Positions 3,652 through 32,905 of a DNA stretch of 50,474 nucleotides are shown piece after piece. The stretch lies in NCBI GenBank assembly GCA_002721815.1, contig PBLQ01000013.1, positions 1-50,474 on the forward strand. The letters are read 5' to 3'. The position numbers were made by a program, and so were the translations under genes. Origin of the DNA: Myxococcales bacterium. Its GTDB lineage: Bacteria; Myxococcota; UBA727; GCA-2721815. Every line of letters starts with the position of its first letter. Within the stretch, counting starts at the first letter, position 1. The notes beneath the pieces were generated by a model. The model was not told where the DNA came from. It did no database searches and saw only the letters and a program-made list of their open reading frames with translations.

Positions 3652-3657
3652 CGCCTC

Positions 3658-8102: not shown

Positions 8103-8836
8103 GCAGCGCTCATGAGAATGGTGACGGCGAAAAGCAGTTGCGCACCGAAGTAAAAGGGCAATCCCCAAAACTTGTTGAAAAAGCCGGCTTGCTTGAAACG
8201 GTCCCGTGCCACCGAAATATCAGAAAGCCAAAATAAGGTGGCCGCCACAGGCATGAGCATCAGGTCTGTGGATTGAACGGCCACCCCAATGGACAAGGTG
8301 ACCATGGCGGTGATGACCACCACGTAACCGAGAATGGGTTTTTGCAGTTGGGCGGGCACATCTGGACGCAGCCAACGGTACACGCCCAGGGCAATGGCGA
8401 TCATGGGAATGGCGGCCACCAAAGCGCCCATGGGGCTGATGCCCACAAAAAAGAACGCGACGGTATAAGCCACGTGCGCCAGTAAAAAGGCGGCCACGCC
8501 ACCCAAAAACACTTTGCCCGAACCCTGGGGAATGAGACACAGGTCACCAACCACCGACAACACCAATCCCACAAAGACACAAAGGCCATAACCGGATCCG
8601 AAGGGGGCCGTGAACCAGCCGGCCAACAAGAATCCCAGGCAGGCCAAGGGTTTGAAGGTCCAACGGGCCCATTGCCAGTTGGTTTTTTCGGCCACCAACA
8701 GACCCAACACCCCCACCGCCGTGAGGGCCAGGCCGGTCCAAAAGCCGTTGGGAAATGGGTTTTGAGCCGGGCTGATGGGGCCATTGGTGAGGCCGGGCAG
8801 ATGGGCGCAGAGATTTTCTAAGCTGCTGATTAACAT
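8099..8836 (-). CDS. YhhN-family lysoplasmalogenase (TMEM86-like integral membrane hydrolase)
   Basis: 245 aa with ~8 TM helices. Sequence is characteristic of YhhN: GDLCLIP...FLGGVAAFLLAHVAYTVAF...ATLFWLSDISVARDRF. Convergent with the pqqB-like gene, overlapping by 4 nt. Confidence 0.8.
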   Translation of the reverse strand: MLISSLENLCAHLPGLTNGPISPAQNPFPNGFWTGLALTAVGVLGLLVAEKTNWQWARWTFKPLACLGFLLAGWFTAPFGSGYGLCVFVGLVLSVVGDLCLIPQGSGKVFLGGVAAFLLAHVAYTVAFFFVGISPMGALVAAIPMIAIALGVYRWLRPDVPAQLQKPILGYVVVITAMVTLSIGVAVQSTDLMLMPVAATLFWLSDISVARDRFKQAGFFNKFWGLPFYFGAQLLFAVTILMSAA

Positions 8837-9153: not shown

Positions 9154-12100
9154 ATGAGAAGCATTTGGGGTGCCCTGTTGGGCCTTTTCGTTTTTGTTGG
9201 TTGCCAGCCTACCACTCAAGACACGCGGGCAGACACCCGTGCGGCCGTTTCGGGTCGTGTGGTGTTGGCTGACACGCCGGGTGTGAGCGATATGAGTCGC
9301 GTGCGCGTTGAAATCGGTAAAGGAGAGGGGGGCTCCACCCCCGAAGAAGACGGCATGTTTCAAATGACCGATCTCGAACCAGATGTGTACGAAGTGCGTG
9401 TGTTGTACATTGGTGGCCTCACTTCAGACGCCACCGAAAGTGCATACCAAGAGTTCACCCGACGGGTTTTGTTGCAAGAGGGCGGCAATGTGGATTTGGG
9501 CGACATCAAACTCGAAGTGGGCCTTGGGGTGGTCACCGGTGGTTTGGTGCTCACCGATGAGAGCTCTACCGATGGGGCCATCGCCCGTTTGACCAACGAC
9601 ACCCTCGTGCGCGAAGCCCCCGTGGTGGATGGGGTATACACTTTTGCCGATGTGCCCATTGGCACCTACAACCTTCAGGTGGAAAAAGAGGGCTACACCC
9701 TGGCGCAAGAGGGCAGCATGTCTGGCTCGTCTGTCGACGACGAAGAGGGTGGCGAGAGCAACGACGCTGAAGGCACCGAAATGGGCGACCTGGGTTGCAC
9801 CCAAAATACCGTGGTGGGTTTTCACAGTGAGAATGTCGCCGCTGCAGATTTCCGTTTTACCCCCACCAATGTGTCGTTATTGCCCGGCATGGGCGAAATC
9901 CAAACCACGCGTGGCAGCCAATGGATTCTATCCACCGAAACCGAAACCCTCACCGCCAATGTGGTGGGTGGGTTTATCACCCACGCGCGCATGTGGACCG
10001 AAAACGCCACACCAGGGGCTTGGGAACCCTTTGCCAGTGGTGCAGGTTTTGAAATTGCGGTGAGCGATTTGATCGAGGGCAACAATGCCATTTATTTTCA
10101 ATTCGCGGGTTGTCGCTATGAATCACCGGTGACCACCTTAAACGTGTTGCTCGACAAAACCGCGCCTTCCGTTGAATCCTTTGAAGTCCGCGGCCGCACG
10201 CCCGCTGATGACGGTGGGTATTGGATAGCCACCGATGCGGCCACCCTCACGGTGGATTTTCTGGCCGATGATGCCCATTCCTCCATTGCGGGGATTGCGG
10301 TGGTGCACACCCAAGACAACGAAGCACCGGCCTTGGCCGATCTGGTCTTCGATGATGTGTCGGCAGGCGACGGCCTCATGATGGGGTCTCGACAAGTGGG
10401 GCTCACAGGCGGCGATGGTGAAAAGAAAATCTTTCTTTTCTTAAAAGATTTGGCGGGCAACATCACCGAATCGGCTTACGGCGACCTGAGTGTGCATGTG
10501 GATACCGAAGCGCCCGTGCCAGGGTCCTTGCTCATTACCGGCAAAGACGCCGCAGGTGAGGCCAGTACCGACGTGACGGCCACCCAAGAGGTGACCTTGA
10601 CCCTGAGCGCTGAAGGCGCCAGCCATTATCGCGTGGGGTACGATGAAACCTTCGGTGGCCAAGCGTGGAACGATTTTGATGTGAGCAGCCGAAGTTGGAT
10701 GTTGATGCCCGGTGATGGCACCAAAACCGTGTATGTGCAGTACAAAGATGCGGTGGGCAATGTCACTTTGCCCATTAGCGCCAGTATCGTTCTTGACACC
10801 CAACCACCATCATCGACCTTTATCAGTCTCAACGATGGTGATGACTTTACCAACAGCACCGCAGCGACAGCCACCTTGAGCGCCACCGATGCCACCCACA
10901 TGCGTTTGAGCGTTGATGGCCTTTTCGATGAGGAGCCCTGGGTGGCATACGACATCTCCCACGAGGTGACCTTGTTGTCCGAGGAAGGTGAGCAACGGGT
11001 GGATGTGATGTTCCGCGATGCGGCTGGCAATGTGTCCATGGTGAAATCAGATGTCATTTATCTCGATATGACCCCACCAGAATTGAGGTCCATGGACCTG
11101 CTGTCCATTGCAGCCGCCAGTGATGGAACCCTGTGGGTGACCGAAGAAAATGCCACTTTGGCCGTGGATATCATGGCCGATGACGGGGCCAGTGGCGTGT
11201 CCGCCGTGGCTTTGGTGGAGGGCATGACCGAACCCAATGCCAATGACGTGACCTTTAATGCGGTTTTCGCCAGTCCCGGCTTATTCTTAAAAACCGAATA
11301 TGTCACACTGAACACCGCCGAGGGACCCACGAATGTGTATTTGTTCCTCAGAGATGCCGCTGGCAACACGTCGGCCATGGCCGGCAGTTTTGCCCTTCAA
11401 GTGGACGCACAAGCGCCCGTGTTTGGTGACCCTGCCATAACGGTCACCAACAAGTCCGGTACGCAAATATATGCCGACCAGGCGGAACTCCAAATTCAAA
11501 TTGCCGATGAAGAAGACCCTGTGATGATGCGTGTTGGATTGCAGCCGCTTACCTCGGCCACGCAGAAAATTCCTTACCAAAGTGAGGTTGCGGTAGGTCT
11601 ACCCTCCCAGACTGGGCTGCCGGTGGCCTTTGAAGTAGAGGTCTTTGACGCGGCCGGTAATATGACCAGTGCCACCAAAAGTGGTTTCGAGGTAAACCGC
11701 AGCGGCTGGCTGCGCGGGAACATCAGCTTAGAAGCGCGACAGCCCGCCCATGTCACCATGGATACCGTACTCAAACTGTTTGATGCGGGGGCAGACTTGG
11801 CAACGACGCCACGTGACATTGAATACGTGACGCCCAGTGGCGAATTCGAGTTTGCCGAAGTGCCTGAAGGCGCGGGGATGACCCTGGTGGTGGAACGCAT
11901 GGGATATAAAACCCAAACCCTCGCGGTTCCGACGATTCAAAGTGGGCTCACTTCCACTTTGGGTGATGTTGAAATGGAGGTGGCACGGGGCTATCTGAGC
12001 GGGCGTATCATGCTCGAGGATTTGATGGACAGCGAAGAAGAAGGGCACAGCGGAATACGGGTGATGGCCCAACTGGTGAGCAGTGCTACCAGCATGACGG

Positions 12101-15100
12101 TGATGGAAGCTTACACCCAAAATGACGGCACCTTTGATTTTCCTTACCCAGGCCTGCCGGTGAATGTGGAAGGAGAAAGCTACACCATTTTGGCGCAACT
12201 CACCGGGTATTTTGCCGAGAGCTTTGAGGGCCAAAATGTGGTGGAAGGCGATGTCACTGAGATGGAGCCCAGCCGGGGTGAACTGCGACCGGTGTCTGGC
12301 GATTTCGATTTGTGTGACCCTTCAACGTTTGGCGACGGCGACTGTCAGCCTGCTGCCTATACTAACCTTGACGCAGTGGGTGTCCGGCTGAGGGTGCGCG
12401 AAGGAGTGACCCAAATACGAGCCATGGTCGGGGACACGCCTTTTGACCCCGAAGCTGCAGAGCCAGCCTGGGAAGATTACCCCACCAATGCGGTACCACA
12501 GGTGGACATACAAAGCGTGGCGGAAGGTATGATCAAAGTCTTTGTTCAAGTCAAAGATGCTGCGGGTAACGCTGGCTTGGTGATGAACAGCCAAATCCTA
12601 GTTGACCGCACCGCGCCCCAAATGCGGGCGCTCACCCTTAATAAATCGGAAGATGCGCTGCGCAGTGACGTGACCAAAGAAAAAGCGGTCAATGTGACGG
12701 CTGAAGCGGAGCTTGAAACAGCGGATTATGCCGCACCTTTGGCTCGGTTTGAAATGGCTTTTTCGGACGAAAGTGCGCCGGATGATGCGAGTCCATTTGA
12801 TGGCTCCGTTCGTAACTGTCCCATTAACAGTGCCTGCGAGGTTTCTTTGCCTCGCTCCATCGGCGATTCGGTGGAAGAAAAACGCCACGTCCTCAACGCA
12901 CGGGTTTGTGACAAAGCGGGCAATTGCTCCGCGGAGTTCGAAACTGCGGCGGTCCTTTACGATAACACACCGCCCTGGATTCAGTCGGGGACGTATGTGT
13001 TGAACCCCGAAGACGCGCAAATGCACGATGGCGTGCACTATGCGCGAACCAATCTTTACTCGATTTTGCTCAACACCGGGACGTCGATCAATACGGCTGA
13101 AGCAGAAATGATGGACCCTGCCTACGAGAGTGACGATATTGACGCGGTGGCTTTGGCCGATATCTACGGTTGGCGTTTGGGTTTTGAGTCCAACCTCATT
13201 GGTGAAGAGTGGCAAACCTTTGATTCAACGCCCCAAGCCGATTATCAAGTGTCGGTGCGCGGCTTGGGCTTGCCCTTTGGATCAACCGAAGAAGAAGTCT
13301 TTATGCAATTTCGAGATGCTGCCGGTAACGTGACCAGTGTGCCCAGCGATTACGCTTTCACGGTGGCACTGGACACCGAAGCCCCGGCGGCCTCCTTTGT
13401 GCTGAATGAGGGTGCAAAATACATTGTGCAGCCGCCCCCCAATCCCTTAGTGAGCCTCATCCCGATTACCTCAGTCGATCTGGGCTTTACCACCACCAGT
13501 AACGATATTTCTGAGGTCCAAGTGAGCCTGACCGGGCTCTTCGACGACACCCAAACCTTTCCATTTTCGGCCTCGGGTATTTCAGTGGATTTGGCACACA
13601 ATGTCATGGTCGAAGATGGCGAACACCATGTCTATGTGCGGTTGGAGGATTGGGCCGGTAACATCACCGAACGCTCCGACAGCATCATTTTAGACCGCGC
13701 GCCCCCCGACATGGGGGCCGTCAGTGTTGATGACGGCAGTGGCTACATGTTGAATTACAACGCTCAAGTGACGGTGAACTGTTACGATGCGCTGGCCAAC
13801 GATGGTGAGTTGCTTTTAGATGTTTCGGTGGACGGTGAAGGTGGACCGGCGCCCGAAGGAACGGGCTACAACGGCCGCTACGGTAACTTAATTGAGTTGA
13901 GTGTGGGCGAAACCCAAGAAGTGAAAACCTTAAACGTGACCTGTACGGACCCTGCTGGCAACAACAGCGAAGTCGTTTCCATACAAGCCACCCTCGATAG
14001 CGAGGCGCCCACCTTTGCCGCGGCCCCCGAGCTGCACCATGGCCTCAACGAGACCAACAACCCCTTGGTCTCGGTGAAGGTTCAGGTGAGCGATGGTGTC
14101 AGCGGGCTGGACATGCTGGCTTTCTCCGAAGCCGACAGTTGCGATAACGTGGCTTTTGTGGAGCCACCGCCAGTACCAAGTTTCTGCGCCAACGACAGTT
14201 CAGAAGAATGCACCTCCGATTCGGATTGTTGTACGGACGATGATGGCGCTGACTGTTTTTGTAACGTCATGGATTTTCGGTACTTGTTGTCTCCGAACGA
14301 TGGCCTCAAACAGGTCTACGTTTGTGCACGGGATATGGCCGGCAACGTTTCAACACCTCGGGAAACCAACACGGTCCTGCTCGACACGAACCCACCCACG
14401 AACCCAGCTTTAAGTTTAACGGGGGGTGAATGGCAGACCAGCAGCTTGACCACGGCGAATTTGTCAGCGGTGGGTGCCTCTCACATGCTGATCGAAGGCG
14501 ATGTGGAAGAAGGCCCGAATACATTTGATTGGATTGACTACGCCACGTCGGTTCCGAATCTAGAACTTTCAGCCGGTGATGGTTTAAAAATCGTACGCGC
14601 CAAATTTAAAGATGAGGCCGGTAACATCACCGATGCGGTGAGTGCCCAAACGAGCGTTGATGAGACCCCACCGGTGGTGAACAGTGCCTCTTGCAGTTCT
14701 TGTCAAACCGTTGAAGGGCAGTTGTATGCGCCAGAGCGTACCATTGCCTTTGATGTCCTGGGCTCTGATGAGGGCGGCTCGGGGGTTGAATGGGTGAAGA
14801 TCAGCTTGGCCGATGGAAGTGCTGAGGCAACCATCTCGTATGGGAACGTGCTTGAATACACTTTGCCAAACAGTGGCACGAGTTTCGATCTGGTGGTTTG
14901 GCTCGTTGATTACGCGGGGAACACCTCCGATGGGAGCGACGATGCGTATAAACAGGAGTTCAATATCCAGCTCGACGATGCGCCGCCTGTGATTCATAGC
15001 TTTTTGGTTACTTCCGCTGCATCGGGCTATGTGACCGATCCTCAACTGGAGATTAAATTGGAAGTCTCTGATGATACGGCGTTCTACCGAATCTCAAATA

Positions 15101-18100
15101 CAGGTGCCTTTACCGGTGAACCGGTGGTGTTTGTCAACGAAAACGATACCAACGGGTACCCTTACGTGTCTTTGCTGCATACGGTGCAAGCGCCTACGGA
15201 AGACGAATCCAAAACGGTCTATGTAGAGGTGGGGGACAATGCAGGAAACACGGCACAGCAATCGGTATCAGTGATTCTTGATACCACCATCCCTGTAGGA
15301 ACCATCGAACTGGCTGGCGGTGCCGACTATGCCACTGTCAACAGGGTGGATGTGGTGTTAACCTATCCCGCTGATGCCACCCATTATGCGGTGCAAAATG
15401 GCCTCATGGATTGTACCACGCAGGACCTCTCCAGCTTTAATTCTGTGGCTACATCGCCACAATCCCTTGAAGACCATCACCTTGGATACGGCGATGGCAC
15501 TAAAACGGTTTCGGTGTGTTACGTGGATGCCGCGGGCAATGTGGCAGGAGCGTCTGACAATATTATTTTGGATACGCAAGGCCCCACTGTTTCGATGGTG
15601 ATCGAAAACGATGCCGCCTACACCCAAACCCGCACCGTCAATTTAAATTTAACGAAGGACGAGGAGATCGATAAAATTGTAATTCTCAACGAAGGCCCGG
15701 GCTGTGATTCTTTAGATTTCGATAATGACGGGGTGGGGTATGAGGATACCAAAGGGCATACGCTTTCAGAGGGTGATGGCACCAAAGAGGTGTTGGTGTG
15801 TTTTAGGGATTTGTCGGGGCAGGTGACAGGGGCCACAGATACCATCGAACTCGACAGCTTGGACCCCAATTCGACATTGACAATCAACGATGATGTGCCG
15901 TACACCAACCAGCGCAGTGTGGCTTTGACCATGGGGCCCAACACGCCAGGGGCGGCAGATTTTACCGATATTGTCAGCATGGCGGTAGATGCTGCCGATT
16001 GTGACACCGCCACCTACACCCCCTTTGTGACCTCTCTGACGTGGCTGCTTGGTGAAACCGAAGGGGACCACACCTTGGAGGTTTGTCTGAAAGACGCTTC
16101 TGGCCGCACCGCCAAAACGCCGGCTGCCACGGTTCATCTGGATACCATTTCACCGGTGCCCACAGTGCTCATTGAAAATGATGATGCGTATACCACGTTC
16201 AAGAAAGCCACCGTCTCTTTTACCTTCCCCGATGATGCCACGCACTACCATGCCGCAGGGGGGGCAGTGAATTGTGAGAATGTCAGCATCACAGATCAAG
16301 TGCCTGCTGACGTTAGTTCGGTCACATTGTCTAACTTTGATTTGCCCAATGCAGAGAATGAAGGCGAGAAAATGGTGACGGTTTGTCTGAAAGACAACTC
16401 TGGCTTGATAGGCTCGTCATTTGACACCATTTATTTCGATAACAACGCACCGACCGTATCGGTGACCATTAACAATGGGGACACTTACAGCCGCTCCACC
16501 AGTGTGGACCTCACCTTGAGTGCTTCTGAGAACATTGCCGCCATTGCTATCGGTGATAAAATGCTCGATTGTAACTCTGAGAGTACCGATTACAGTGTGT
16601 ACGATTACGATGTGTCCATCCCCAATTACGACTTGGGCTCCGCGCAGGGCGAGCGACAGGTGAAGGTGTGTTTTCGGGATGATGCCGGAAACCTTTCATC
16701 GGATGTAGGTTTAATTATTGTGGATACCCTTAACCCGGCCGCGACCCTCAAAATCGGCGATGACGCTGACTACGCCACCCAACGCCAAGTCTCTTTAAGC
16801 CTGTTGGCGGTGGAGGGCGAAACCAACAAGTTCGACGATATCAAATCCATGGCCGTGGCCAACGCTGTTTCGTTGGACTGCGACACTGCCGTGTACCTGC
16901 CATTCACCGCCACCCAAGAACACTTGTTGTCCGATGGGGACGGAGAAAAACAAGTGGTGATTTGCCTGAAAGACCATGCCGGGAACTTTGCATCAATTGG
17001 TCCCGCTGTCATTGAATTGGATACCCAAATCCCCAACGGCGCCATCGAATTGGCAGGCGGCATTGAATTTTTGGGACACGAGTCTTCGGGGGCCCCTCGA
17101 ATCGAGGGGACGCTGACTTTCCCAGACGATACGCTGAAGTACCGAGTGCAGAACGGGTACATGGACTGCACGGCTTCAACGATGGTTGATTTACCTGATA
17201 ACCACGGCGGTACATACACGGTGGAAAACCATTCGTTGTCCAGCGGGGAAGGCGAGAAATTGGTGACGGCCTGCTTTGAAGACGCAGCGGGACTGATGGC
17301 CAGTGCTTCAGCTGCTATCTATGTTGATCAAAGCCCCCCCAATGGCACCATTGTTCTCAACAGTGGCGCTTTAGTGACCGATGATGCAAATTTATCGGTG
17401 ACCATGAGCCCGCCGGCCGATGTGACCCACTATGCCATCGGTGAAGGGTTGGATTGCGATGGCAATGTGAGTTTTATCGCTTACGATGGCGAGAGTATGA
17501 CGGATTACCTCGTGGACCCGGCCATCAGCGGTTTATATACCATTGATGTTTGTTTTAAAGACAGGGCTGGCCTTACCGCAAAGACCACCGCCTCCATCAT
17601 ACTCGATGTGGACGCACCGGTGGTGAACAGTGTGACCATCACAGATGCAGACGGCAATGCCATCGATTACGCCAAAGGGGTGAACGTCTATGTCCAAGTC
17701 AACATCACCGATTTGCCTGACCTCACGGGAGACAGTGGGTCTGATGGAGATCCAGGTGGCGGGAGCGGTACTGGTGGCGGCGGCGGCGGCTCGGGAGGAC
17801 CGGACACCGAAACAACCTTAGATGTACCCAATCTTGAAATGATGATTTCTGAAGACGCTGGTTTTGCCAATGCCGAATGGGTCACTTTCAAGGCATTCAA
17901 ACCATTTACGTTTTCCACCGCCAATGGGCCCAAAAATGTATATGTGAAGGTTCGTGACGGTGCTGAGCAAGAGAGTAACGTTGCGTCAGATGCCGAGGGT
18001 GTGATCTTGGACACTGAGTCGCCCACCATTACCAGTGCGACATTCATTGAATCCAGTCCCAATGCCTTGCCAGGCCGTGTCAACCCAACAGACCTCGCAG

Positions 18101-21100
18101 AAGATACGGAGTTTTGTCCAGGGGGTAATGCCTCGACCGATCCCAAGAAACGGTTTTTGTCCATTGAGCTTGAGACCAATGATAACTTGGCGGGGAGCTT
18201 GACCGCGAGCGTGGGTTTGGGCAGCTCTTGCGGGGACAACTATTCCCCCTTGTCAGGAAATACGGTCACCGTTGAAGTGGGCTGTGAAGATGATGGCATC
18301 CACTGGGTGGGCATCTGTGTCAAAGACGCGGCCGGCAACAGGTACACTCATCCGTCAATCATGCTGATCCTAGACCGCCAGGCGCCAGAACAAGTGAGTA
18401 ACGTGACTGCGGTGGGCGGGAGCCGTCAGGCGATGATCGATTGGCAAGAAGCCGCAGATCTGGGGGATTCTGGAATACAGGGTTATGAAATTAGATATGC
18501 AAGTTTTGCAGAGCTCGACGGCGTGGGGACCGTCAGTGTTGGGGACATCACCTCTTACAGTCTCACGGGACTCCAAGATCGGGCCACATACTATTTTCAA
18601 GCAGCGGCAAGAGATGCTGCGGGCAACCTCGGCGAATTCTCGGCCATGAAGAGTTTTACCACCGGATTCGCACAAACCGTGCCGCGTTCTGATGTGACTG
18701 ACGCCATTATCGCTGATCCAGATCGCCGCTTTGCTCAGGCAACGGTCTTTGAGGCCATGGGCCAGTTGTACGTGTTTAGCTATCCCACTTACGAGGCAAA
18801 CCCCATTTTGAAAGTTAAAACCTGTGCCTACCGGACAGACAACTGTCGCGACCCTCAGCAGTGGACCGAGTTTGACCTGATTTTAGGTGACATTGATAGG
18901 GAAACCACTTGCGTCGCTGATGATGAATGTGGCGGTGGTCGGTGCCACGAGGGATTTTGCTACCAAAATGTTTGGTCGTTTGGTGCAGAAAATGTCCGTG
19001 CTTTGGCCACTTCCTATCGCATATATATCGCGGCAATGACCAATAAAGGGCCGGCGTTGTTCACCTGCGACAGAGGTTGTACGGCCGCGGCCACACAATC
19101 TGCCGATGGTTTAGGTTTTTCGCTCACATATTTGGAACGGAACAATGAAGATGGTTGCAGGATTGATCAAGGTGGCGCCAGCTGGCGTAGCATTGATATC
19201 GCTGAGACCACGGCCGGTATTCACGTGGCCTATAATGCGACTGAAGGAGACATTTGCGTCGCCAGTTGCGGGAAGGCGTATGAGGCCGTTCCAAACACGG
19301 GTATGGACGTTGGGCCGGGGTGCCAACTCAACCAAAACTGGTTTCACGTCAATGTGAGCGATGTTGATTCTAAGCCTGCATTTGACCTTGCTGACCGCGG
19401 ACCTTTAGACTTGGAGGCCTGGGATGACAGGATTGTGCTGGCCTACGAGTCAGAAAATGAGGGGATCGAAGTCATCTCTTGCTATACCGGGTCTGGGTGT
19501 ATCAATTCGGGGAATTCTACGGGCTGGGATCGGTTTGACGCCAATGCCACTTCAATGACTTTTGCGCCTCTCAATCCGGCCGGAATCGAGTACAATTCGC
19601 CTCGTATCATCTTAACCCAAGACTATATTTATACCCTTTGGCGTAAAATCGGGAGTTATTCCACCACCAAAATCAACCGGTGCGCTCGCGACGCTTGGAT
19701 TGCCGATAATGACGCATGTTATCCCGCCGACAATGAAGATGGAACTCAAGGTTCCTTCACCCAGTTGTGGGGACAGATCGAAGGCGGTGAAATGCTGAGC
19801 TTGTTCAAGGGCGCAGGTGCCTTACACCAGGTTTGGTGGAACAAATCGCAATCTCGCGTGAAATACGCGGTTTGCGAAAACCCCAACGCGACCGATTGCA
19901 GTGATGGGGATAATTGGGATCGTGTTGTTCTTGCCAATGAAGTGCCCAGTCGCACCATCCCTCACGTGGTCCAATATGGACAGAATGTGCTGGCATCTTG
20001 GATCGATGCCAACGCACACGTTCACCTGGCCTTGCCCATGGTCCCTGCACCCGATGGTTTTGTGGTCTGGCCCAGTGCGCAATCCTTACGTGCGAGTTGG
20101 AACCCCGTCAGTTACGTCGATGGTTATGACCTGTGGTACCAGAATGCCAGGGCTTATGGGGCGTCTTTAGACACCAACCTTTGGGAACAACGCATTCCGT
20201 TAAACGATGCTTTCGTGAATGAAGTGAGTATGTCTTTGGATACAGGCGCGTCTGACGAGCTTATGACCTACAACACGTGTATCCGTGCCTACGGTAATTC
20301 AGGCGAAGAATCTTCGGATGGTGATATGTATCAGGTGACCGCTTTCGTTGAGGAAACGCTTTCCAGTGACATCCCCGGGAATTTCTCTAGCAGAACCTGT
20401 GCCGCTGACAACACTTGCAGCAATTATGGGGCTGATGGTTGGGGGAGTAACGTGGGGTATGCGTACACCATCAACAATGATGGGGTGTATGTGGCGCTTC
20501 AGGGGCGCCCTGAAGTACGGTTGGCCCTCCCGAATGATGCCACTGCCGGTATTTTAGATGTGCTACTGACGCCCCAATCGTCAACCCGTTTGGGTGATTA
20601 TGATAACGGTTACTTTTTTGTGGTGACTGGCATCAACCATCGGAACGCGATACCCGAAACCATCGTCATGAATGTCTGCCAGTTTAATTTGGGGCAAGGC
20701 AGAGATTGTTCTTTTTCGGACGCATGGCATTCTTACGAGGTCGTCGATAACGATACCTCAAATTTGGGCAATGCTAATGATGGTAAAACCACCGCGCAGT
20801 TGGTTCATGATGGTGCCGATCGGGTATTCTTGGCCTACCGCATGAGTGACCGTGATCAAGCTACGGCCAACAAAGTGGCTTTTGTCTCCTGCTTTTTAAC
20901 GACCTACGCTAACGGTGAAACCACCGGTTGTACGGAGGAGAGTCAATGGCTCGATTATACCTTCGGGGGTCCCCATTGGAAGGGCATGAAAACCATCCCC
21001 GGGCGCTTCAGTATTGCCGCGGGCCAAACCCAAATCACCAATCAATCCGGTGCTGTGGAAGACAAGGGGGTCGTTTTTCTGAGTTACCACCGGCAAGACA

Positions 21101-21768
21101 CAAATCATGCAGGCGCCACCATTTACCACGTGGATGTGCATGGGGCCACCTATGATGCGGCGGATGATAATGCCTCTGTGTTCTATGCCCACGACCAAGC
21201 AACCTTGTTAAATGATTACGGCAATGATGTTCATGACTACTTGATTAAAACGGATGTGAGTTCAGATATGAGCGTGGTTTTACTCGCCACAGGTCGTCAG
21301 ACCTCTGATTTATTGGCCATGGAACTGTTCATTTGCTCTGAGAGCCCTGTTTACTGCACCCAAGGTGATTTTGGTGGTGCGCCGGGGAACAACGTCCTCG
21401 ATCATTGGGGGCGCGTGAAGCTTGGGGCACTGGACACCACAGGGTCGGTGGGTATGGATTTGAGAGTGACCGATGACGGGCAAATCTACGTGGGGTACAC
21501 GCACCGCAATCAAGTGAGAATGGCCCATTGTGCCGAAAATTGTACCGATATCGCCCAGTGGCGCGATGGCGTGTTACACATCGACCCGGTGGTCTCTCCA
21601 GCCATGTATAATAACGGCGTATTTTGGTTGACCGAAGAACCCAGTTTGAGTGAAGGCATACCTGCGAAAATCGGTTTTGTTTTGGGGAGATCTGCCGCGT
21701 TTGATGATGAAACCAGAAAGTTGAAAGCTTTCACGGGTGGTGAGTGGCTACCGCTCAAGGTTTACTGA
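9154..21768 (+). CDS. Giant (~4205 aa) cell-surface lipoprotein/adhesin: two CarbD-like domains, ~24 Ig-like LDTxxP repeats, Gly-rich linker, FN3, Cys/Trp-rich blade-repeat C-terminal region
   Basis: A single uninterrupted ORF. The start was chosen at ATG 9154 (MRSIWGALLGLFVFVGCQ, lipobox) with a GGGAGA RBS. The track ORF begins at 9013 but that part lacks a signal peptide. Domain content was read from the translation. Confidence 0.9.
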   Translation: MRSIWGALLGLFVFVGCQPTTQDTRADTRAAVSGRVVLADTPGVSDMSRVRVEIGKGEGGSTPEEDGMFQMTDLEPDVYEVRVLYIGGLTSDATESAYQEFTRRVLLQEGGNVDLGDIKLEVGLGVVTGGLVLTDESSTDGAIARLTNDTLVREAPVVDGVYTFADVPIGTYNLQVEKEGYTLAQEGSMSGSSVDDEEGGESNDAEGTEMGDLGCTQNTVVGFHSENVAAADFRFTPTNVSLLPGMGEIQTTRGSQWILSTETETLTANVVGGFITHARMWTENATPGAWEPFASGAGFEIAVSDLIEGNNAIYFQFAGCRYESPVTTLNVLLDKTAPSVESFEVRGRTPADDGGYWIATDAATLTVDFLADDAHSSIAGIAVVHTQDNEAPALADLVFDDVSAGDGLMMGSRQVGLTGGDGEKKIFLFLKDLAGNITESAYGDLSVHVDTEAPVPGSLLITGKDAAGEASTDVTATQEVTLTLSAEGASHYRVGYDETFGGQAWNDFDVSSRSWMLMPGDGTKTVYVQYKDAVGNVTLPISASIVLDTQPPSSTFISLNDGDDFTNSTAATATLSATDATHMRLSVDGLFDEEPWVAYDISHEVTLLSEEGEQRVDVMFRDAAGNVSMVKSDVIYLDMTPPELRSMDLLSIAAASDGTLWVTEENATLAVDIMADDGASGVSAVALVEGMTEPNANDVTFNAVFASPGLFLKTEYVTLNTAEGPTNVYLFLRDAAGNTSAMAGSFALQVDAQAPVFGDPAITVTNKSGTQIYADQAELQIQIADEEDPVMMRVGLQPLTSATQKIPYQSEVAVGLPSQTGLPVAFEVEVFDAAGNMTSATKSGFEVNRSGWLRGNISLEARQPAHVTMDTVLKLFDAGADLATTPRDIEYVTPSGEFEFAEVPEGAGMTLVVERMGYKTQTLAVPTIQSGLTSTLGDVEMEVARGYLSGRIMLEDLMDSEEEGHSGIRVMAQLVSSATSMTVMEAYTQNDGTFDFPYPGLPVNVEGESYTILAQLTGYFAESFEGQNVVEGDVTEMEPSRGELRPVSGDFDLCDPSTFGDGDCQPAAYTNLDAVGVRLRVREGVTQIRAMVGDTPFDPEAAEPAWEDYPTNAVPQVDIQSVAEGMIKVFVQVKDAAGNAGLVMNSQILVDRTAPQMRALTLNKSEDALRSDVTKEKAVNVTAEAELETADYAAPLARFEMAFSDESAPDDASPFDGSVRNCPINSACEVSLPRSIGDSVEEKRHVLNARVCDKAGNCSAEFETAAVLYDNTPPWIQSGTYVLNPEDAQMHDGVHYARTNLYSILLNTGTSINTAEAEMMDPAYESDDIDAVALADIYGWRLGFESNLIGEEWQTFDSTPQADYQVSVRGLGLPFGSTEEEVFMQFRDAAGNVTSVPSDYAFTVALDTEAPAASFVLNEGAKYIVQPPPNPLVSLIPITSVDLGFTTTSNDISEVQVSLTGLFDDTQTFPFSASGISVDLAHNVMVEDGEHHVYVRLEDWAGNITERSDSIILDRAPPDMGAVSVDDGSGYMLNYNAQVTVNCYDALANDGELLLDVSVDGEGGPAPEGTGYNGRYGNLIELSVGETQEVKTLNVTCTDPAGNNSEVVSIQATLDSEAPTFAAAPELHHGLNETNNPLVSVKVQVSDGVSGLDMLAFSEADSCDNVAFVEPPPVPSFCANDSSEECTSDSDCCTDDDGADCFCNVMDFRYLLSPNDGLKQVYVCARDMAGNVSTPRETNTVLLDTNPPTNPALSLTGGEWQTSSLTTANLSAVGASHMLIEGDVEEGPNTFDWIDYATSVPNLELSAGDGLKIVRAKFKDEAGNITDAVSAQTSVDETPPVVNSASCSSCQTVEGQLYAPERTIAFDVLGSDEGGSGVEWVKISLADGSAEATISYGNVLEYTLPNSGTSFDLVVWLVDYAGNTSDGSDDAYKQEFNIQLDDAPPVIHSFLVTSAASGYVTDPQLEIKLEVSDDTAFYRISNTGAFTGEPVVFVNENDTNGYPYVSLLHTVQAPTEDESKTVYVEVGDNAGNTAQQSVSVILDTTIPVGTIELAGGADYATVNRVDVVLTYPADATHYAVQNGLMDCTTQDLSSFNSVATSPQSLEDHHLGYGDGTKTVSVCYVDAAGNVAGASDNIILDTQGPTVSMVIENDAAYTQTRTVNLNLTKDEEIDKIVILNEGPGCDSLDFDNDGVGYEDTKGHTLSEGDGTKEVLVCFRDLSGQVTGATDTIELDSLDPNSTLTINDDVPYTNQRSVALTMGPNTPGAADFTDIVSMAVDAADCDTATYTPFVTSLTWLLGETEGDHTLEVCLKDASGRTAKTPAATVHLDTISPVPTVLIENDDAYTTFKKATVSFTFPDDATHYHAAGGAVNCENVSITDQVPADVSSVTLSNFDLPNAENEGEKMVTVCLKDNSGLIGSSFDTIYFDNNAPTVSVTINNGDTYSRSTSVDLTLSASENIAAIAIGDKMLDCNSESTDYSVYDYDVSIPNYDLGSAQGERQVKVCFRDDAGNLSSDVGLIIVDTLNPAATLKIGDDADYATQRQVSLSLLAVEGETNKFDDIKSMAVANAVSLDCDTAVYLPFTATQEHLLSDGDGEKQVVICLKDHAGNFASIGPAVIELDTQIPNGAIELAGGIEFLGHESSGAPRIEGTLTFPDDTLKYRVQNGYMDCTASTMVDLPDNHGGTYTVENHSLSSGEGEKLVTACFEDAAGLMASASAAIYVDQSPPNGTIVLNSGALVTDDANLSVTMSPPADVTHYAIGEGLDCDGNVSFIAYDGESMTDYLVDPAISGLYTIDVCFKDRAGLTAKTTASIILDVDAPVVNSVTITDADGNAIDYAKGVNVYVQVNITDLPDLTGDSGSDGDPGGGSGTGGGGGGSGGPDTETTLDVPNLEMMISEDAGFANAEWVTFKAFKPFTFSTANGPKNVYVKVRDGAEQESNVASDAEGVILDTESPTITSATFIESSPNALPGRVNPTDLAEDTEFCPGGNASTDPKKRFLSIELETNDNLAGSLTASVGLGSSCGDNYSPLSGNTVTVEVGCEDDGIHWVGICVKDAAGNRYTHPSIMLILDRQAPEQVSNVTAVGGSRQAMIDWQEAADLGDSGIQGYEIRYASFAELDGVGTVSVGDITSYSLTGLQDRATYYFQAAARDAAGNLGEFSAMKSFTTGFAQTVPRSDVTDAIIADPDRRFAQATVFEAMGQLYVFSYPTYEANPILKVKTCAYRTDNCRDPQQWTEFDLILGDIDRETTCVADDECGGGRCHEGFCYQNVWSFGAENVRALATSYRIYIAAMTNKGPALFTCDRGCTAAATQSADGLGFSLTYLERNNEDGCRIDQGGASWRSIDIAETTAGIHVAYNATEGDICVASCGKAYEAVPNTGMDVGPGCQLNQNWFHVNVSDVDSKPAFDLADRGPLDLEAWDDRIVLAYESENEGIEVISCYTGSGCINSGNSTGWDRFDANATSMTFAPLNPAGIEYNSPRIILTQDYIYTLWRKIGSYSTTKINRCARDAWIADNDACYPADNEDGTQGSFTQLWGQIEGGEMLSLFKGAGALHQVWWNKSQSRVKYAVCENPNATDCSDGDNWDRVVLANEVPSRTIPHVVQYGQNVLASWIDANAHVHLALPMVPAPDGFVVWPSAQSLRASWNPVSYVDGYDLWYQNARAYGASLDTNLWEQRIPLNDAFVNEVSMSLDTGASDELMTYNTCIRAYGNSGEESSDGDMYQVTAFVEETLSSDIPGNFSSRTCAADNTCSNYGADGWGSNVGYAYTINNDGVYVALQGRPEVRLALPNDATAGILDVLLTPQSSTRLGDYDNGYFFVVTGINHRNAIPETIVMNVCQFNLGQGRDCSFSDAWHSYEVVDNDTSNLGNANDGKTTAQLVHDGADRVFLAYRMSDRDQATANKVAFVSCFLTTYANGETTGCTEESQWLDYTFGGPHWKGMKTIPGRFSIAAGQTQITNQSGAVEDKGVVFLSYHRQDTNHAGATIYHVDVHGATYDAADDNASVFYAHDQATLLNDYGNDVHDYLIKTDVSSDMSVVLLATGRQTSDLLAMELFICSESPVYCTQGDFGGAPGNNVLDHWGRVKLGALDTTGSVGMDLRVTDDGQIYVGYTHRNQVRMAHCAENCTDIAQWRDGVLHIDPVVSPAMYNNGVFWLTEEPSLSEGIPAKIGFVLGRSAAFDDETRKLKAFTGGEWLPLKVY
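10141..17650 (+). repeat. Array of ~24 tandem ~95-105-aa Ig-like domains, each ending in an [IV]xLD[TR]xxP boundary motif and carrying a DAAGN/DxAGN strand
   Basis: Recurring boundaries include VLLDKTAPS, VHVDTEAPV, IVLDTQPPS, IYLDMTPPE, ILDTQGPTVS, IELDTQIPNG and ILDVDAPVVN. Copies are divergent (protein-level only), so this is not an assembly artefact. Confidence 0.7.
17752..17806 (+). repeat. Gly-rich low-complexity linker (GDPGGGSGTGGGGGGSGGPD) encoded by a GGC/GGT-rich simple repeat
   Basis: ggtggcgggagcggtactggtggcggcggcggcggctcgggagga read directly from the sequence. Confidence 0.6.
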
Positions 21769-21872: not shown

Positions 21873-24800
21873 ATGCGTCATCTTATCCTTCTTATTTTTT
21901 GTATTTCTGGGGTTTTAGGCGGTTGCCAACCCGTCACCAACGACACCCGCGCCGATGTGCGCGCTGCCATTTCTGGGCGTGTCGTCTTGGTGGACGAAAA
22001 CGGCTTAAACGATGTCAGTCGCGTCCGGGTTGAGCTGGGCAAAGGAGAGGGGGGGACCACCCCTGAAGAAGACGGCAGTTTTCAACTCTCGGACTTAGAA
22101 CCCGATGTCTATGAATTACGTGTCATCTATTCTGGCGGCTTAACGCCTGACGCCTCGGAGAGTGCGTACCAACAATTCAGTCGCCGTTTGCTGCTCCAAG
22201 AGGGGGGCAACCTGGATTTGGGTGATGTGGAGCTCCAGTTGGGTGTGGGGTCGGTGTCTGGTCAGCTGAGCGTCGAAGAAGGCCTCGATATCTCTTCTGC
22301 AACCGTGAACCTGTCGCGCATCACCTCATCGGACAAATCGCTGCGCCGCGTGGGCGACACCACCTACAGCCAAGCCCTCGAAGAAGATGGCAGCTTCACC
22401 TTAGAAAACGTTGCAGTGGGCTCTTATTATATGGTGGTTGAAGGCGATGGCATCTCTGCCACTTCAGGCTCTGCTTGCTTAGAGGTGGTGAGCGTTGACG
22501 AAGATTTACAAGTTAAAGAGGCCCCTTCTTTTTCATTGGCTTCCACCGCAGTGCGTTTTTCTGCCGGTACCGACCAAGTGATTGGCTTAGACACCTCAAG
22601 CCGTTGGTTGCTTTCGGGCGAGGGTGTCACCGTGCACATTCAAGCTTCTTTTGCCTTTGCCCAAAAAGTGTGGACGCAAGGCGAAGAGATGCCGGCTGAA
22701 TTTACAGATATTGACGAGGCAGACCGAGCAGACATCGTTCATATTTTTGAAAATATCGAAGAAGGTGAAAACGAAGTCTACTTTCAATTCGCAGACCCCT
22801 GTGGCTTTGAAAGCGAGGTGCTCACGCTGACTTTGGTGCGCGATATCTCACCTCCAGAGATTTTAAGTGCGCATTTGAACAACGAAGTGGCTTACAGCAC
22901 TGCAAGTACGGTGGCGCTCACGGTGGATGCCGTGGACGTGTTGTCAGACACCTTAGAAATGCAATGGGGCGTGTGTTTGTCGGGCGAGAGTGATTGTACG
23001 CCTTTAGACAGCGATGCCTCCAGCTGGACGCCTTATGTGCCTTATGTGAGCGTGCCTTTGGCCGAGGGCGATGGCACCTATCGGCTCGGTCTTCAACTCC
23101 GTGATGCATCACAGAACGCAACGGCCGTGGTGGAACGCAGCGTGACGTTGGATACGGTGGCGCCCACAGACTTAAGTTTGACCATCGGGGATGGGTCGGC
23201 CTTCATCACCGAGGCGAGTCAAATCTTGCGTCTGACGGGTGAGGGCATTTTTGAAATGCAGATCGGGACAGACTTGGCCGACGCCCCTTGGCAACCCTAT
23301 CAAGAGTACAGCAGCTACACCTTTTTGCCCTCTAGCGTCCCCGTGACATTGTATGCCAAAGCCCGTGATGAAGCGGGCAATATGACCGAATCCGTGGAAG
23401 CCAGCGTGACCTTAGATGCCACGGGGCCACAGGCACCCAGTGTGGTGCTCAACAATGGTGAACTGTTCTCCAATGGCCTAGCCGCTTTGGCTGATACAGA
23501 TGCTTCAGTACAAGGCGTCCGCATTGCCTTGAGCGTTGCCGGGGGCGAAGCCGGTGGGCAGGTCTTGATTGCAGGTGATGTTGAGGAAGCGGGCGCTTAC
23601 CCGTGGCCTGATCACCCCACTGAAGTGACTTTTGAGCGTGAAGAAGGAGAAAAAGAAATCAAAGTCGTACTGAGCGATGCGGCGGGCAACCACTCTGCCG
23701 TCACCAAGAGCACCGTCATGTTTGACTTTACCCGTCCAGTTTTAAACAATCTTCGTTTAAATGGTGATCGTGGTTACGCTCAAAGCGGCAATGTGAGTCT
23801 TGGATTGAACGCCACAGAGTTACATTTGAATCATCTCCAAATGAAGGTGGCCTTGTGTGTCTTGTCTGAAAACCCCCAAGACCACCTCAATCCCGCCGAG
23901 GAAATGACGTGCACGCCCTCACTTGAAGAACTGGAATGGGCTTCTTTTGCCGCTTTCCAAAATTTGAGCTTCCCTGAGGGAGACGGGGCGAAAGGCGTGC
24001 AAGTACGTTTGCGCGATGGTGCGGGCAATGAGAGTGAGGCCACGCTCATGAGGGCCTTTGTGCTGGACAGCACGCCACCCCAAAACGTGAGTCTGACCAT
24101 TGGTGATGGGTCGGCTTTTATCACCCAATTAACGCAAACAATCACATTGACTGGCGAAGGGATTGCAGAAATGAAGGTGGGCACTGACTCAGCCGGCGTC
24201 ACTTGGCAGCCTTACCAAGAAAATTTCATGTATACGTTTTCGCCTTCTGACGTGCCCGTGACGCTTTATGCCAGAGCCCATGATGAAGCGGGCAATACCA
24301 CAGATTTCGTGGAGGCCATGGTCACCTTTGATGCCACAGCTCCCCAAAACGCACAGGTGACGCTGAACGATGGCAGTCTTTTTTCAAACAATGATGCCTA
24401 CCAGGCGAATCTCAGCATTCTCGGCGGCGAAGAAGGCGGCCAGGTCATTCTGTCCGGTGACCTTGTTGAGGCGGGTGCCTACGATTGGCCCAATTACCCA
24501 TCCGAAGTGACCTTTGTGGCGGGCGAGGGCGACAGAGAAGTTCAAGTGGCCTTAAGCGACAGCGCTGCGAACTTTTCAGACTTTGTTTCGGCCATTGTCA
24601 TTTTTGACCTTACTGCGCCGGTGAACAATGTGGCATCTTTAAACCAAGACGATTTGTATTCTCAATCCGAGGTGGTCTCTTTGGTGCTGAATGTGACCGA
24701 GGCCCATGAAGATGGCTTACAAATGCGTGTGGCACAGTGCAGTCTTCCCAGTATGCCGCGAGACCACTTGAATCCTGCTGATCCAATGACCTGCGACCCT

Positions 24801-27800
24801 GTTTTAGAGGACATCCCGTGGGCACCTTACGCATCTTATCAAAATCTTATTTTTAATGAAGATGGGGCTAAGGGGGTACAAGTGCAAGTGCAGGACGGAG
24901 CGGGCAACCTTAGTGGTGCTGTGCAAAGGGCCTTTGTTCTCGATCGTCTGGCACCCCGCAGCATCAGTATCGCCATTGGTGATGGGAGCGCTTACGTGAC
25001 ACAACGGACGCAGGTGGTGTCCATTCAAGATGACAGACGTGAAGCCACGCACATGAAGATTGGCTTGGTGGAGGGGCTGCCTGGGGTGCCATGGCAAGCT
25101 TTTCAAGATCAAATTGAAGTCACATTTTCAGAAGAAGAAGGCGAGAAAACCGTCTACGCGCAGTTCCGCGATGCAGCAGGTAACGAGACACCTTCAACCA
25201 GTGCGTCCGTCACGTACACCACTTTGGGCACCATCACCGGCAAAGTGGTGGCAGAAGATTTACAAGATTTGAGTTTGGTGGAAGTGAGTGTGTTGGGCGG
25301 GAGTGGTTCGGTTTACCCTGAAGCCAACGGTACTTTTACCATCAGTGACATTCCTGAAGGCGTTTACACCGTCCAAGCCCAAGTCACGGGGCCCTGGGCC
25401 AGCAAATACAATGTGGCGCAATATGGCGTGGCGGTGGAGGCGTTACAGACCACCAGCATGCCAGACATGGTTTTAAACCTGGCGCGTGGCAACGTGAGTG
25501 GAGCCATTGATTTAGAAGCGCAAAACCACAATGGAGGCGTGGTGGTGCAACTCTTGCCGCTGTCAGTTGCTGACCAAGGCATGGCAGATGGTGGCGTCGC
25601 CAATGAAACTTGGGACGGTGGTGAGGCCGAAGACGATGGCTTCATTTATACCACCATCACCACCGATGAGGGTGCATTTGCCATCAACGGGGTCGTTGTG
25701 GGCCAATACCAGCTGAAGGCTTCAAAACCGAATTACGTGAGTCAAACCTTTGCGCCAATAGGGGTTTTGGCGAACGAAATGGCAGAAATCCCAACAATTT
25801 ATTTAGAAGTACAAAAAGGAGATGTCAGCGGTGTTGTTCAGGTAGAGGCCTTTGTCGGCAGCATGGACGATGGGAACGATTCAGACGGTGGCACCAACGA
25901 TTTGCGCACGAGGGTTTCTTTCTTGAATCTCAATTCACAGTTGACAGTTTCGCCCGGAGAAGCATTTACGTTTGACGGGGTGGCTTTGGGCCCCCAGACC
26001 ATGCGTTTTGAAGTGTTGCCCCCGTATGACGACTTGTATGCCCCAGTGGAGAAAGCTGTTGAAGTCACCGCAGGCCTCTCTTCGGTACCACAGGTTTATA
26101 TGCCTTTGTTGCGGGGAAGTCTCTCCGGCAGCGTTGCCAATGAAAACACCCTGCCAGTGATAGGGGCGTTGGTGTCGATTCAAGAGCTGGATCTCGTGAT
26201 GGTGTCGAATACCAACGGTGAGTTTGAGTTTCTGTCGGTTCCAGTGGGAGTTTACACCCTGAAAATCAACAGTGCGGGATATGGGGAAGAGACGCTGACG
26301 GCCCAAGTGCAGGCAAACACCAACACCGATCTCGGGCTGCAGACACTCGTTCGGGAGAAGGGGAATGTGCAGGGTTTGGTTAACATCGAAGGCGGTTTAT
26401 CTCCCAATAACGTTGCGGTATCTGTCGTCGGTGGCAGTCAAAGTGCGCAAGCGTCAGAGACAGAACCAAACAGCACCAACGGCAGTTTTCTTTTAGAAGG
26501 GGTCGACCCGGGACTGCAAACATTGCGTTTCGAGGTCACGGGTGGCGATGCCGTCAACTATTTGGCAAAAGAGCTCGATGTTGTGGTGCAGGCGGCTCAG
26601 ACCATAGAAGTCAATGGTGGTCAGCCTTTGACCGTTCTAAAGGCAAGAGGTTCTATTTCAGGGACCGTCCTGCTCGACAATCACAATGGTGATGTTGATG
26701 TCTTGGTGCAAATACCCTCTGAGTCGGAAGCCGTGTTGACCAATGCGGATGGTTCATTTGTTTTTTCTGATGTGCCGGTTGGGCAATACAATCTTACGTT
26801 TCAACGATCCGGTTACCAGGCAGCCACTGCGAACAACCAATTGGTGACCAACGGCGGCATCACCATTGTAGACACCCTCACTTTGCCAGAGTTGCTGGGC
26901 AGTATTTCGGGGCAGGTGGTCCTCGAGGAGGGTTCCGATTTTTCGGGCATTGAAGTCAGTTTGACGGGGACCAACCATTCTGTCACCACAGACATCGATG
27001 GCAACTTTAACTTGCCTGATATACGTCCTGGATTTTACAACGTGCTCATGCGCAATGACGGCTTTCAGGATTTACGTGAAAATGGTGTTTATGTTCAGGC
27101 GCTCGTTGATAACGATTTGGGCGGTTTTGTGCTCACGCGTGCGCGCGGCCTTCTTGAAGGCGTGGTTCGTTTGGAGGGGCTGGAAAACCATTTGGGCATC
27201 AAGGTCGAATTCCCAAATACGGGCTACACCACCTATTCTGCTGTGGACGGCAGCTTTGACCTTAATGTGCCGGTGGGCAACTATCCTGACTTAACCTTCT
27301 CGAAGACCCATTACGGTACGGTGGTTTTGGCGGATACCATTACGGTGACCGAGTACGGCACCTACGCGGTGGAGCCCGTTGATTTGGTGCAGGTGAGTAA
27401 ATCGGTCACAGGCTCGGCATTTTATCAGGGCATGGATGACCACCAAGGCATTTTGGTCCAAGCCTATGGCCTAAACGCGGGGGGGACTGAAACGTTGGTT
27501 GACGAAACCACCACCTCAACTGCAGGGACCTACGGTTTTGAATCTTTACCGCTTGGCCAATACCGTTTCCGATTCTCAAACCCGTTGGCCAATACCAGTT
27601 GGTCAAGGCCTTTCTTTCAGGTTGCCCTAGAGGTGGGTGCTGCCGAAGAAATGCCATCTGTTTTTCTGCAGAATATGTTTGTCTTCATTAACGATGATGA
27701 TTTGGCCACGAATAATCCAGTGGTGACATTAAATGTGGGGGCCATGGGTTGTGATACCATGCGTGTGGCGAATGAAGGCGATGACCTCAGCGCTGCGCCA

Positions 27801-32546: not shown

Positions 32547-32905
32547 GTGGAATCGAGGGTGTCATCTAAAGTGCCAGCGTCGGTCGTCTGGTTGTCGTCG
32601 GTTGGGTTCGCTTGGCCGCCGTCTTCATGGATGGGAGGCGGTGTGGTCGTGATTGCACCTGCATCAAGGGTCGTGTCATTGTTGGGTGGGGGCTGAAAAA
32701 TGGTTTTATTTTTTGTGGTGCCGTCTGTTGGTGCATTGTTGTCTTCTGGACATCCAATGACCAGTGCTGAAATGCTGGTCGCAATGATGATTTTAAAAAT
32801 AAGGTGCTTGGTTGATTTCAATGGTTTTGCTTTCTTTTGGGGTTGTGCAGGTGCCTGTTGAACCAGCGAATGTGGCGTGAAAAATTGGCGATTAAAGGTC
32901 GTCAT
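32547..32905 (-). other. Out-of-frame N-terminal segment (lipoprotein signal LIFKIIIATSISALVIGC + T/P/D-rich linker with TDAG repeats) probably belonging to the BIG2 gene downstream; apparent frameshift near 32546-32565
   Basis: ORF 32258..32905 has ATG 32905 and an alternative TTG at 32821 (MKSTKHLIFKIII...IGC). Its linker TLDAGAITTTPPP...TDAGTLDDTLDS matches TDAG-type linker repeats inside the 430-aa ORF. The meaningful sequence ends where the BIG2 ORF begins. Confidence 0.35.

Follow-up and report, generated by a model that had tools for sequence, protein, structure and literature searches.

A specialised head domain directly behind the lipobox of mostly giant Myxococcota lipoproteins: family, conservation and possible role

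Two giant lipoprotein genes and their shared head

The stretch of DNA analysed here, i.e. the window, comprises positions 1 to 50,474 of contig PBLQ01000013.1 (assembly GCA_002721815.1), which belongs to the metagenome-assembled genome (MAG) of a marine 'Myxococcales bacterium'; the window recurs in at least ten assemblies, Tara Oceans included. It carries two giant lipoprotein genes in tandem, named A and B in the following (Table 1), the products of which share, right after the lipobox cysteine, a closely similar domain of some 100 residues, designated here as the head. As detailed below, this head is almost certainly the family-defining domain of a previously unnamed family of mostly giant Myxococcota lipoproteins, and it can be considered separately from the long and variable bodies it precedes.

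For A, the likely start is an ATG preceded 7 nt upstream by GGGAGA, which resembles a ribosome-binding site, and a 4204-aa gene call in one public assembly has exactly the length counted from this start, i.e. M48 of the open reading frame (ORF). From their sequences, both precursors are predicted to be lipoproteins, with a positive n-region, a hydrophobic h-region and a lipobox of the pattern [LVI..][ASTVG][GAS]C, in the layout MRS-IWGALLGLFV-FVGC for A (lipobox FVGC) and MRH-LILLIFCISGV-LGGC for B (lipobox LGGC). In mature A, the cysteine opens a tether of about 13 aa, CQPTTQDTRADTR, followed by a predicted transthyretin-like beta-sandwich of ~95 aa. As the earlier note on this DNA had it, a second CarbD-like domain comes next in each protein, since Pfam returned two PF13620 stretches per N-terminus; this second domain is 0.25-0.37 identical between A and B, and an EMC7_beta-sandw match was also obtained at mature residues 145-173 of B. 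Along the two proteins, the repeats recognised by Pfam are Big_13, Big_3_2, Big_6, fn3 and CarbD_reg, namely Big_13, Big_3_2, fn3 and CarbD_reg in A and at least six CarbD_reg domains in B, where the C-terminus bears an F5/8 type C (discoidin) domain (residues 3004-3114, nt 30849-31181, forward strand). Both proteins are strongly acidic. The last 160 aa of A and B are devoid of a hydrophobic tail and gave no NCBIfam sorting-signal match, and neither a C-terminal Cys tripartite sorting signal of the MYXO-CTERM type nor a transmembrane helix was found in A or B. Besides, Pfam gave no match in the C-terminal ~1000 aa of A (residues ~3210-4251, nt ~18640-21765), and the whole of A has 70 cysteines.

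Regarding the likeness of the two heads, the pairwise alignment that the earlier note had suggested as a check gave 72% identity over the first 114-115 aa from the cysteine (179 bits, E 4e-63), and BLASTP over 174 aa from the same residue gave 57% identity (E 4e-69). In sliding windows, the identity between A and B is 0.70-0.78 across the head and 0.10-0.45 beyond, the remainder of the collinear N-terminal 650 residues being ~25-30% identical and the best full-length high-scoring segment pair reaching 31% over 864 aa. The motif quoted in the earlier note right after the lipobox cysteine is indeed present in both translations, and the conservation of the head far above the rest of the proteins is borne out. 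In the DNA, the conserved block sets in some 13 nt ahead of the Cys codon and stops about 317 nt past it (~9189-9520 and ~21911-22242), with 63-80% identity vs. 30-47% outside. The block is real and sharply bounded, but the ends first proposed for it (9700 and 22420) lie ~180 nt too far, within the second domain, which is poorly conserved.

Table 1. Coordinates of the two giant lipoprotein genes, their N-terminal features and the syntenic upstream gene in the window
Feature	Position	Strand	Basis or remark
Uncharacterised 652-aa protein, possible accessory factor, syntenic	5259-7217	+	homologues upstream of head-bearing giants
Giant A ORF	opens 9013, to 21768	+	4251 aa (ORF list)
Giant lipoprotein A	9154..21768	+	likely start ATG 9154, giving 4204 aa
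A predicted type II signal peptide MRSIWGALLGLFVFVG and lipobox Cys (codon 9202-9204)	9154..9204	+	sequence; same n-h-lipobox layout in homologues
A head (tether and domain)	9202..9543	+	72% identity to B head; head profile 214.8 bits
A second CarboxypepD_reg-like domain	9526..9780 (approximate)	+	PF13620 stretch, mature residues 143-169
Giant B ORF	opens TTG 21840, to 31241	+	3133 aa (ORF list)
Giant lipoprotein B	21873..31241	+	likely start ATG 21873
B predicted type II signal peptide MRHLILLIFCISGVLGG and lipobox Cys (codon 21924-21926)	21873..21926	+	sequence
B head (tether and predicted transthyretin-like domain)	21924..22265	+	head profile 213.9 bits
B second CarboxypepD_reg-like domain	22248..22510 (approximate)	+	two PF13620 stretches in B N-terminus

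The head family: membership, fold and evolution

A hidden Markov model of the head gave 214.8 bits on A, 213.9 bits on B and 110.2 bits on the N-terminal part of a third member, a protein of 3038 aa encoded by a Myxococcota MAG, whereas none of the CarbD domains inside the three proteins exceeded 19.5 bits. The head is not a generic CarbD domain, and the outcome that the earlier note had itself named as fatal to its proposal is therefore not what is found. An exhaustive HMMER search of 1.84 billion representative proteins returned 165 matches at E <=1e-3, from which re-scoring by domain retained ~59 clusters with a full-length head, scoring 56-222 bits. Generic internal domains reach at most 30 bits against the same profile and a gap of at least 26 bits separates them from true heads, by which the identity of the head with a generic CarbD repeat was ruled out. 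The other searches recovered far less: a word-indexed protein search returned only four, then eight short metagenomic fragments and no giants, although the query alignment included the heads of these very proteins, and it also missed short proteins whose exact head sequences were in that alignment, so that its negatives are uninformative for the head family, while a scan of genome contigs with a narrow clade alignment yielded a single locus (L002) and a scan of metagenomes with a 10-sequence alignment yielded four loci.

The coupling of the head to lipidation signals is tight. An upstream lipobox cysteine with G, A or S at -1 accompanies 57 of the 59 heads, the other two belonging to N-terminally truncated sequences, and 55 extracted head sequences begin at the lipobox cysteine itself. 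The head directly follows this residue in almost all members, with the exceptions of P0076, P0084 and P0085 where it starts 22-65 residues past the nearest lipobox cysteine, and the tether from the cysteine to the first strand measures 11-17 residues in 50 of the 55 members. The +2 residue is never a lysine in the family; a lysine at +2 is the inner-membrane retention signal reported for Myxococcus xanthus. As to size, 43 of the 59 clusters exceed 1000 aa (median 2193, maximum 4521). To the question raised by the earlier note, i.e. whether the head is always followed by a giant repeat protein, the answer is nuanced: heads are N-terminal and mostly on giants, but at least three short members of 304, 397 and 744 aa, found in long contigs, are apparently genuine, several other short matches being fragments from low-coverage or frameshifted contigs.

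All the organisms named for the members are Myxococcota or Polyangiaceae MAGs, and the source annotations read 'carboxypeptidase regulatory-like domain-containing protein', 'FG-GAP-like repeat-containing protein' or 'hypothetical'. Tandem pairs of giants occur at four loci, namely the window, L007, L008 and L018. The family is strongly expanded in some genomes, e.g. the Myxococcota MAG GCA_040752415.1 (L002, L019-L022), where at least seven dispersed head-bearing giants (1703-4503 aa) are found together with the 397-aa short form. No Pfam or NCBIfam model names the head and no description of it was found in the literature searched. Nor do these databases and this literature describe the head subfamily, how strictly it is coupled to the lipobox, that it is conserved throughout the phylum, or that its concerted evolution is confined to one domain.

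The head is a divergent and specialised transthyretin-like beta-sandwich of ~95 residues, of the CarboxypepD_reg type (PF13620/PF13715). Taken in isolation, it matches PF13620 at 21.2 bits (A) and 25.4 bits (B), below the gathering threshold of 32.3 bits, though the match of the A head spans profile positions 2-81 of 82 and the N-termini with the second domain included reach 38-42 bits. The AlphaFold2 (AF2) model, built from a 9-sequence alignment, has a pLDDT of 67 and contains beta strands only, six of them of at least three residues, and the seven-strand transthyretin-like fold was recognised in it with moderate AF2 confidence. Against the Protein Data Bank (PDB), Foldseek retrieved transthyretin-like (TTR) domains with a probability of 1.0 and TM scores of 0.48-0.58, i.e. 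the teneurin TTR domain, a cellulosomal X-module, the SusC NTE (9hfj), the carboxypeptidase D TTR domain and EMC7, while a profile search of PDB sequences with the head gave nothing below E 0.005. The earlier note had deemed the head undescribed, which holds insofar as no family model names it, but it is a divergent member of an already known fold and not a new one. Compared with a generic domain, the head has an E-F loop about 10 residues longer (GGLT..A..SAY), a conserved GRGEGG loop and a GLND.SRV motif; EPD is likewise among its conserved loops, and its invariant polar loop residues are D30, R33, E42, D57, S80 and Y82. The ~13-residue tether ends in (D/E)(T/S)R just before strand A. A LapG-type cleavage motif (TAAG-like) was considered in the tether and dropped, as RAA[VI]SG is confined to the marine clade and the wider family has TRA[STV]ISG.

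Between the heads of A and B, codon positions 1, 2 and 3 are 72, 90 and 43% identical, with a dN of 0.22, a dS of ~2, i.e. saturated, and a dN/dS of ~0.1, the head being under strong purifying selection at the protein level. Recent gene conversion as the sole cause of the likeness in the window was rejected on this dS and on the identity at 4-fold sites, 31% in the head vs. 39% in the body. Together, the codon-position pattern and the saturated synonymous sites rule out both recent gene conversion and a nucleic-acid-level element for the pair A-B. In 45 full-length members, the first ~550-630 residues are collinear and the mean pairwise identity amounts to 0.52-0.63 in the head core, 0.40-0.43 at the head edges and 0.03-0.37 over the next 530 collinear residues; in orthologue pairs of the marine clade, the head and the next domain are 81 and 70%, 74 and 54%, and 81 and 45% identical, respectively. 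Across the family, the head is the best-conserved part of the proteins.

The history of the heads is decoupled from that of the bodies. While A and B are mutual best head matches (179 bits vs. at most 129 for the others, a 50-bit lead), over residues 118-650 B ranks only 12th-13th among the matches of A, and A 32nd-33rd among those of B, out of about 45, the body of B being nearer to proteins of distant lineages (193 bits) than to A (112). In the marine 'CQP' clade, the bodies split into an A-type and a B-type but all the heads are 70-81% alike, which implies a single event close to the root of this clade, either a replacement of the head or a 5' conversion. Beyond constraint, part of the excess similarity between A and B is thus due to a more recent shared ancestry of the head via 5' recombination or gene conversion. 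The earlier note had taken this excess as implying a specific shared function; constraint on the head is indeed found, yet only part of the excess can be credited to it.

A younger case is provided by L008, where tandem giants of 2669 and 2951 aa have heads with 89% aa identity. A ~300-nt block with 80-95% nt identity (L008:568-870 vs. L008:8711-9010) covers exactly both heads, starting at the Cys codon and ending about 290 nt later; dS is 0.66 in the head (bootstrap confidence interval 0.43-0.93) vs. 2.2 in the body (1.5 to saturated), and 4-fold sites are 57% identical in the head vs. 24% in the body. This block is a clean, domain-limited gene conversion tract, younger than the case of the window. 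Over the four tandem pairs, head identity is 72% in the window, 89% in L008, 79% in L018 and 54% in L007, the latter showing no homogenisation effect (head 54% vs. body 40%), and pairs from the same genome have a median rank of 8 by head vs. 12 by body (p 0.012, the pairs not being independent). From the absent effect in L007 and the modest gain in rank, homogenisation is episodic. At least once between tandem paralogs, replacement or homogenisation has affected the head and nothing else.

Neighbouring genes and possible role of the head

Upstream of head-bearing giants in five lineages lies the gene of the 652-aa protein (Table 1), directly adjacent to them in L007, L008, L017 and L018 (homologues at L007:1264-3153, L008:16-486, L017:8245-9997 and L018:5-766). 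The protein, a secreted or membrane protein, exhibits a signal peptide, two or three alpha/beta modules with an internal repeat (d1~d2, hhalign 96%) and a hydrophobic C-terminal region with a weak DUF5683 match and the motif PGFGQFYNGP, invariant as PG.GQFYNGP; its homologue in L007 is 30% identical over the full length (E 8e-76). No sequence relatives were found in PDB or NCBIfam, the AF2 model has a pLDDT of 31, and the literature searched holds no description of the function of DUF5683. Tandem giants are present at four of the five loci with this gene, i.e. all those where it could be checked, and no conserved neighbour genes of single giants were found; the 652-aa gene goes with tandem arrays rather than with the head itself. 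In the window, an MBL-fold hydrolase gene (7224-8102, +) and a YhhN-family gene (8099-8836, -) stand between the 652-aa gene and A and, as the 652-aa gene abuts the giant in L017 and L018, they look inserted into an operon-like unit in the lineage of the window only.

Other neighbours can be listed more briefly. Right downstream of B, on the opposite strand (31254-33685, -), a 430-aa ORF has a weak receptor-L-domain match, and overlapping leucine-rich repeat (LRR) ORFs (32258-32905, 32892-33386 and 33197-33685, -) may be fragments of one LRR protein. Further away are found an Omp85-family gene at 40662-41915 beside an unannotated 354-aa ORF (both within 40662-42976, -) and a gene for a 618-aa Lcl_C-domain protein (44800-46656, -) with a short 51-58% motif in common with a giant neighbour in L007. 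Directly upstream of the B-type giant, a relative from marine sediment encodes a 1439-aa metallopeptidase that is IMPa/M60-like and bears Cys-rich domains of the EGF and TNFR types (L003:5431-9750, +).

Regarding function, the giants would be surface-exposed fibres in which a lipid anchor at the N-terminus is followed by an Ig-like stalk and a C-terminal tip, both variable; the tip is a discoidin domain in B and Lcl_C, FGE-sulfatase or FG-GAP in other members. The head would then be the only element that all paralogs are obliged to offer to common components of the envelope at the membrane surface, among which the machinery carrying or flipping lipoproteins to the surface and holding them there is a candidate. 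It would be kept constant, and similar inside each genome, as stalks and tips diverge, the need to fit shared membrane components accounting for both the constancy of the head and its likeness among co-resident paralogs. Taken as a whole, this reading, in which the head serves at the membrane as a shared module for docking or handling, is held with moderate confidence, and the partner-docking step in particular is possible, if somewhat short of probable. Several points weigh against it. Surface exposure of the giants is something we infer from size, acidity and distal binding domains only, and a link of the head to any machinery is conjectural. The AF2 model of the head has moderate confidence only, and the demands of a stable fold beside a membrane may be all there is behind the conserved glycine and hydrophobic residues. 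The 652-aa gene was not found within 8-10 kb upstream of seven single giants, which indicates that the head needs no partner encoded in cis. Within-genome likeness of heads is strong for the pair of the window and for L008, weak in MAG305 and absent in L007.

Other explanations bear on whether the head has a function of its own. That it is an ordinary CarbD_reg repeat, the likeness between A and B being just the footprint of 5' gene conversion as in ligA/ligB, would fit the transthyretin-like fold, the sub-threshold PF13620 match, the conversion limited to the head directly evident in L008 and the LigA/LigB precedent (PMC7821625). This is largely refuted and appears very unlikely, as 72% aa identity persists in the window over saturated synonymous sites at a dN/dS of ~0.1, the head is the best-conserved part both across the ~59 clusters and between orthologues, and it is N-terminal in all these clusters, nearly always with the lipobox right before it, with the score gap reported above to generic domains. 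Even more remote is a conservation acting on the nucleic acid, be it a 5' mRNA structure, a regulatory element or an overlapping gene, to which the sharp bounds of the conserved DNA block could lend some credit; the codon-position pattern refutes it, with position 2 at 90% and position 3 at only 43% identity, and the block starts at the Cys codon and not in the 5' untranslated region, the upstream DNA being 27-47% identical.

A function being granted, the head could be a passive pedestal, i.e. a rigid first domain without partner, packing on the membrane or the lipopolysaccharide and setting the exit angle of the stalk, in which case conservation would stem from folding next to the anchor and from the lipid or glycan surface that it touches being invariant. 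The short and length-constrained tether, the many invariant glycine or hydrophobic residues, typical of fold determinants, and the single giants devoid of conserved neighbour gene all agree with such a pedestal, which nevertheless remains rather unlikely: it leaves unexplained the invariant polar loop residues as well as the replacement or homogenisation of the head as a sharply bounded unit among co-resident paralogs. A more ambitious scheme, in our view unlikely, makes the head the recognition handle of a dedicated and undescribed Myxococcota route that delivers very large lipoproteins to the cell surface and retains them there, with the 652-aa DUF5683-like protein as a component; if shared by all the paralogs of a cell, such a route would account for heads staying compatible inside one genome. 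Compatibility would also be required if the heads of co-expressed giants, e.g. A and B, formed hetero- or homo-oligomeric bundles at the membrane. Transthyretin-like domains can associate through edge strands, tandem pairs recur at four loci and their heads are unusually alike in the window, L008 and L018, but the tandem heads of L007 are just 54% identical and many members are dispersed singles, so that bundling of this kind is judged improbable. The shared docking or handling module thus stays the preferred reading.

Lipoprotein transport to the surface of diderms is known for few lineages and, for proteins of 2,000-4,500 residues, is essentially unexplored. A lipobox, followed by a tether of ~13 residues and the specialised TTR-like head, offers a searchable marker for a family of giant and probably surface-displayed lipoproteins, which reaches largely uncultured Myxococcota, including an abundant marine lineage in Tara Oceans assemblies. 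With the constant part pinned to ~100 residues, a concrete construct is at hand for localisation and partner finding. If the head were only a structural pedestal, the outcome would be a useful family definition and little more.

Comparison with known systems

In giant RTX adhesins such as LapA and MpIBP, a conserved N-terminal retention module anchors a giant Ig-repeat fibre to the envelope while stalk and tip vary. These adhesins are type I secretion substrates, without signal peptide and with RTX repeats and a C-terminal secretion signal, whereas A and B have a predicted type II signal peptide and a lipobox, gave no HemolysinCabind match in Pfam and have no RTX motif in their C-termini. Likewise, the inverse autotransporter (intimin/invasin) barrel PF11924 gave no Pfam match, the N-terminal 650 aa consisting of collinear soluble-type domains.

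As lipid-anchored Ig-domain adhesins or enzymes, the surface lipoproteins PulA and Acinetobacter InvL, which depend on type II secretion (T2SS), resemble the giants, though they are shown on the diderm surface and the display of A and B is conjectural. Their recognition is reported to need folded parts of the substrate (PMC9245377, PMC12802150). The giants have no sequence relation to them, and no T2SS genes are present in the window. The same fold is found in the N-terminal extension (NTE) of the Oar/SusC TonB-dependent transporters, the nearest analogue by position, which, like the head, opens an envelope protein and whose function is also unknown (PMC6434023, PMC7782687). Rather than a plain signal peptide, it is a lipobox cysteine that the head follows, and Ig-like repeats come next instead of a TonB box, plug and barrel. 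Indeed, neither Plug (PF07715) nor the TonB_dep_Rec barrel gave a Pfam match in A or B, and the sole transporter-related match is a partial one to TIGR04056 (20.6 bits), over the N-terminal CarbD part of that model.

An evolutionary precedent is found in Leptospira, where ligA and ligB encode tandem Ig-repeat lipoprotein adhesins, the 5' 1.9 kb of which are kept identical by gene conversion (PMC7821625). As in A and B, the lipoproteins are tandem and Ig-like, with variable C-terminal parts and like 5' parts, and A and B also weakly match domain models of the OmpL47 type from leptospiral surface proteins. The differences are nonetheless clear. A and B are 2-4 times larger and their repeats are Big_13, Big_3_2 and CarbD_reg in place of Big_2, for which no Pfam match was obtained in A or B, so that they fall outside the Lig type in spite of their lipobox. 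In Lig, near-identity extends over a shared block of ~1.9 kb and the promoter as well, whereas the A/B block is limited to one domain (~300-330 nt), without signal peptide or upstream DNA; it is also ancient in the window, with dS saturated, and conserved across a phylum-wide family. The head thereby adds a case of domain-limited concerted evolution comparable to that of LigA/LigB.

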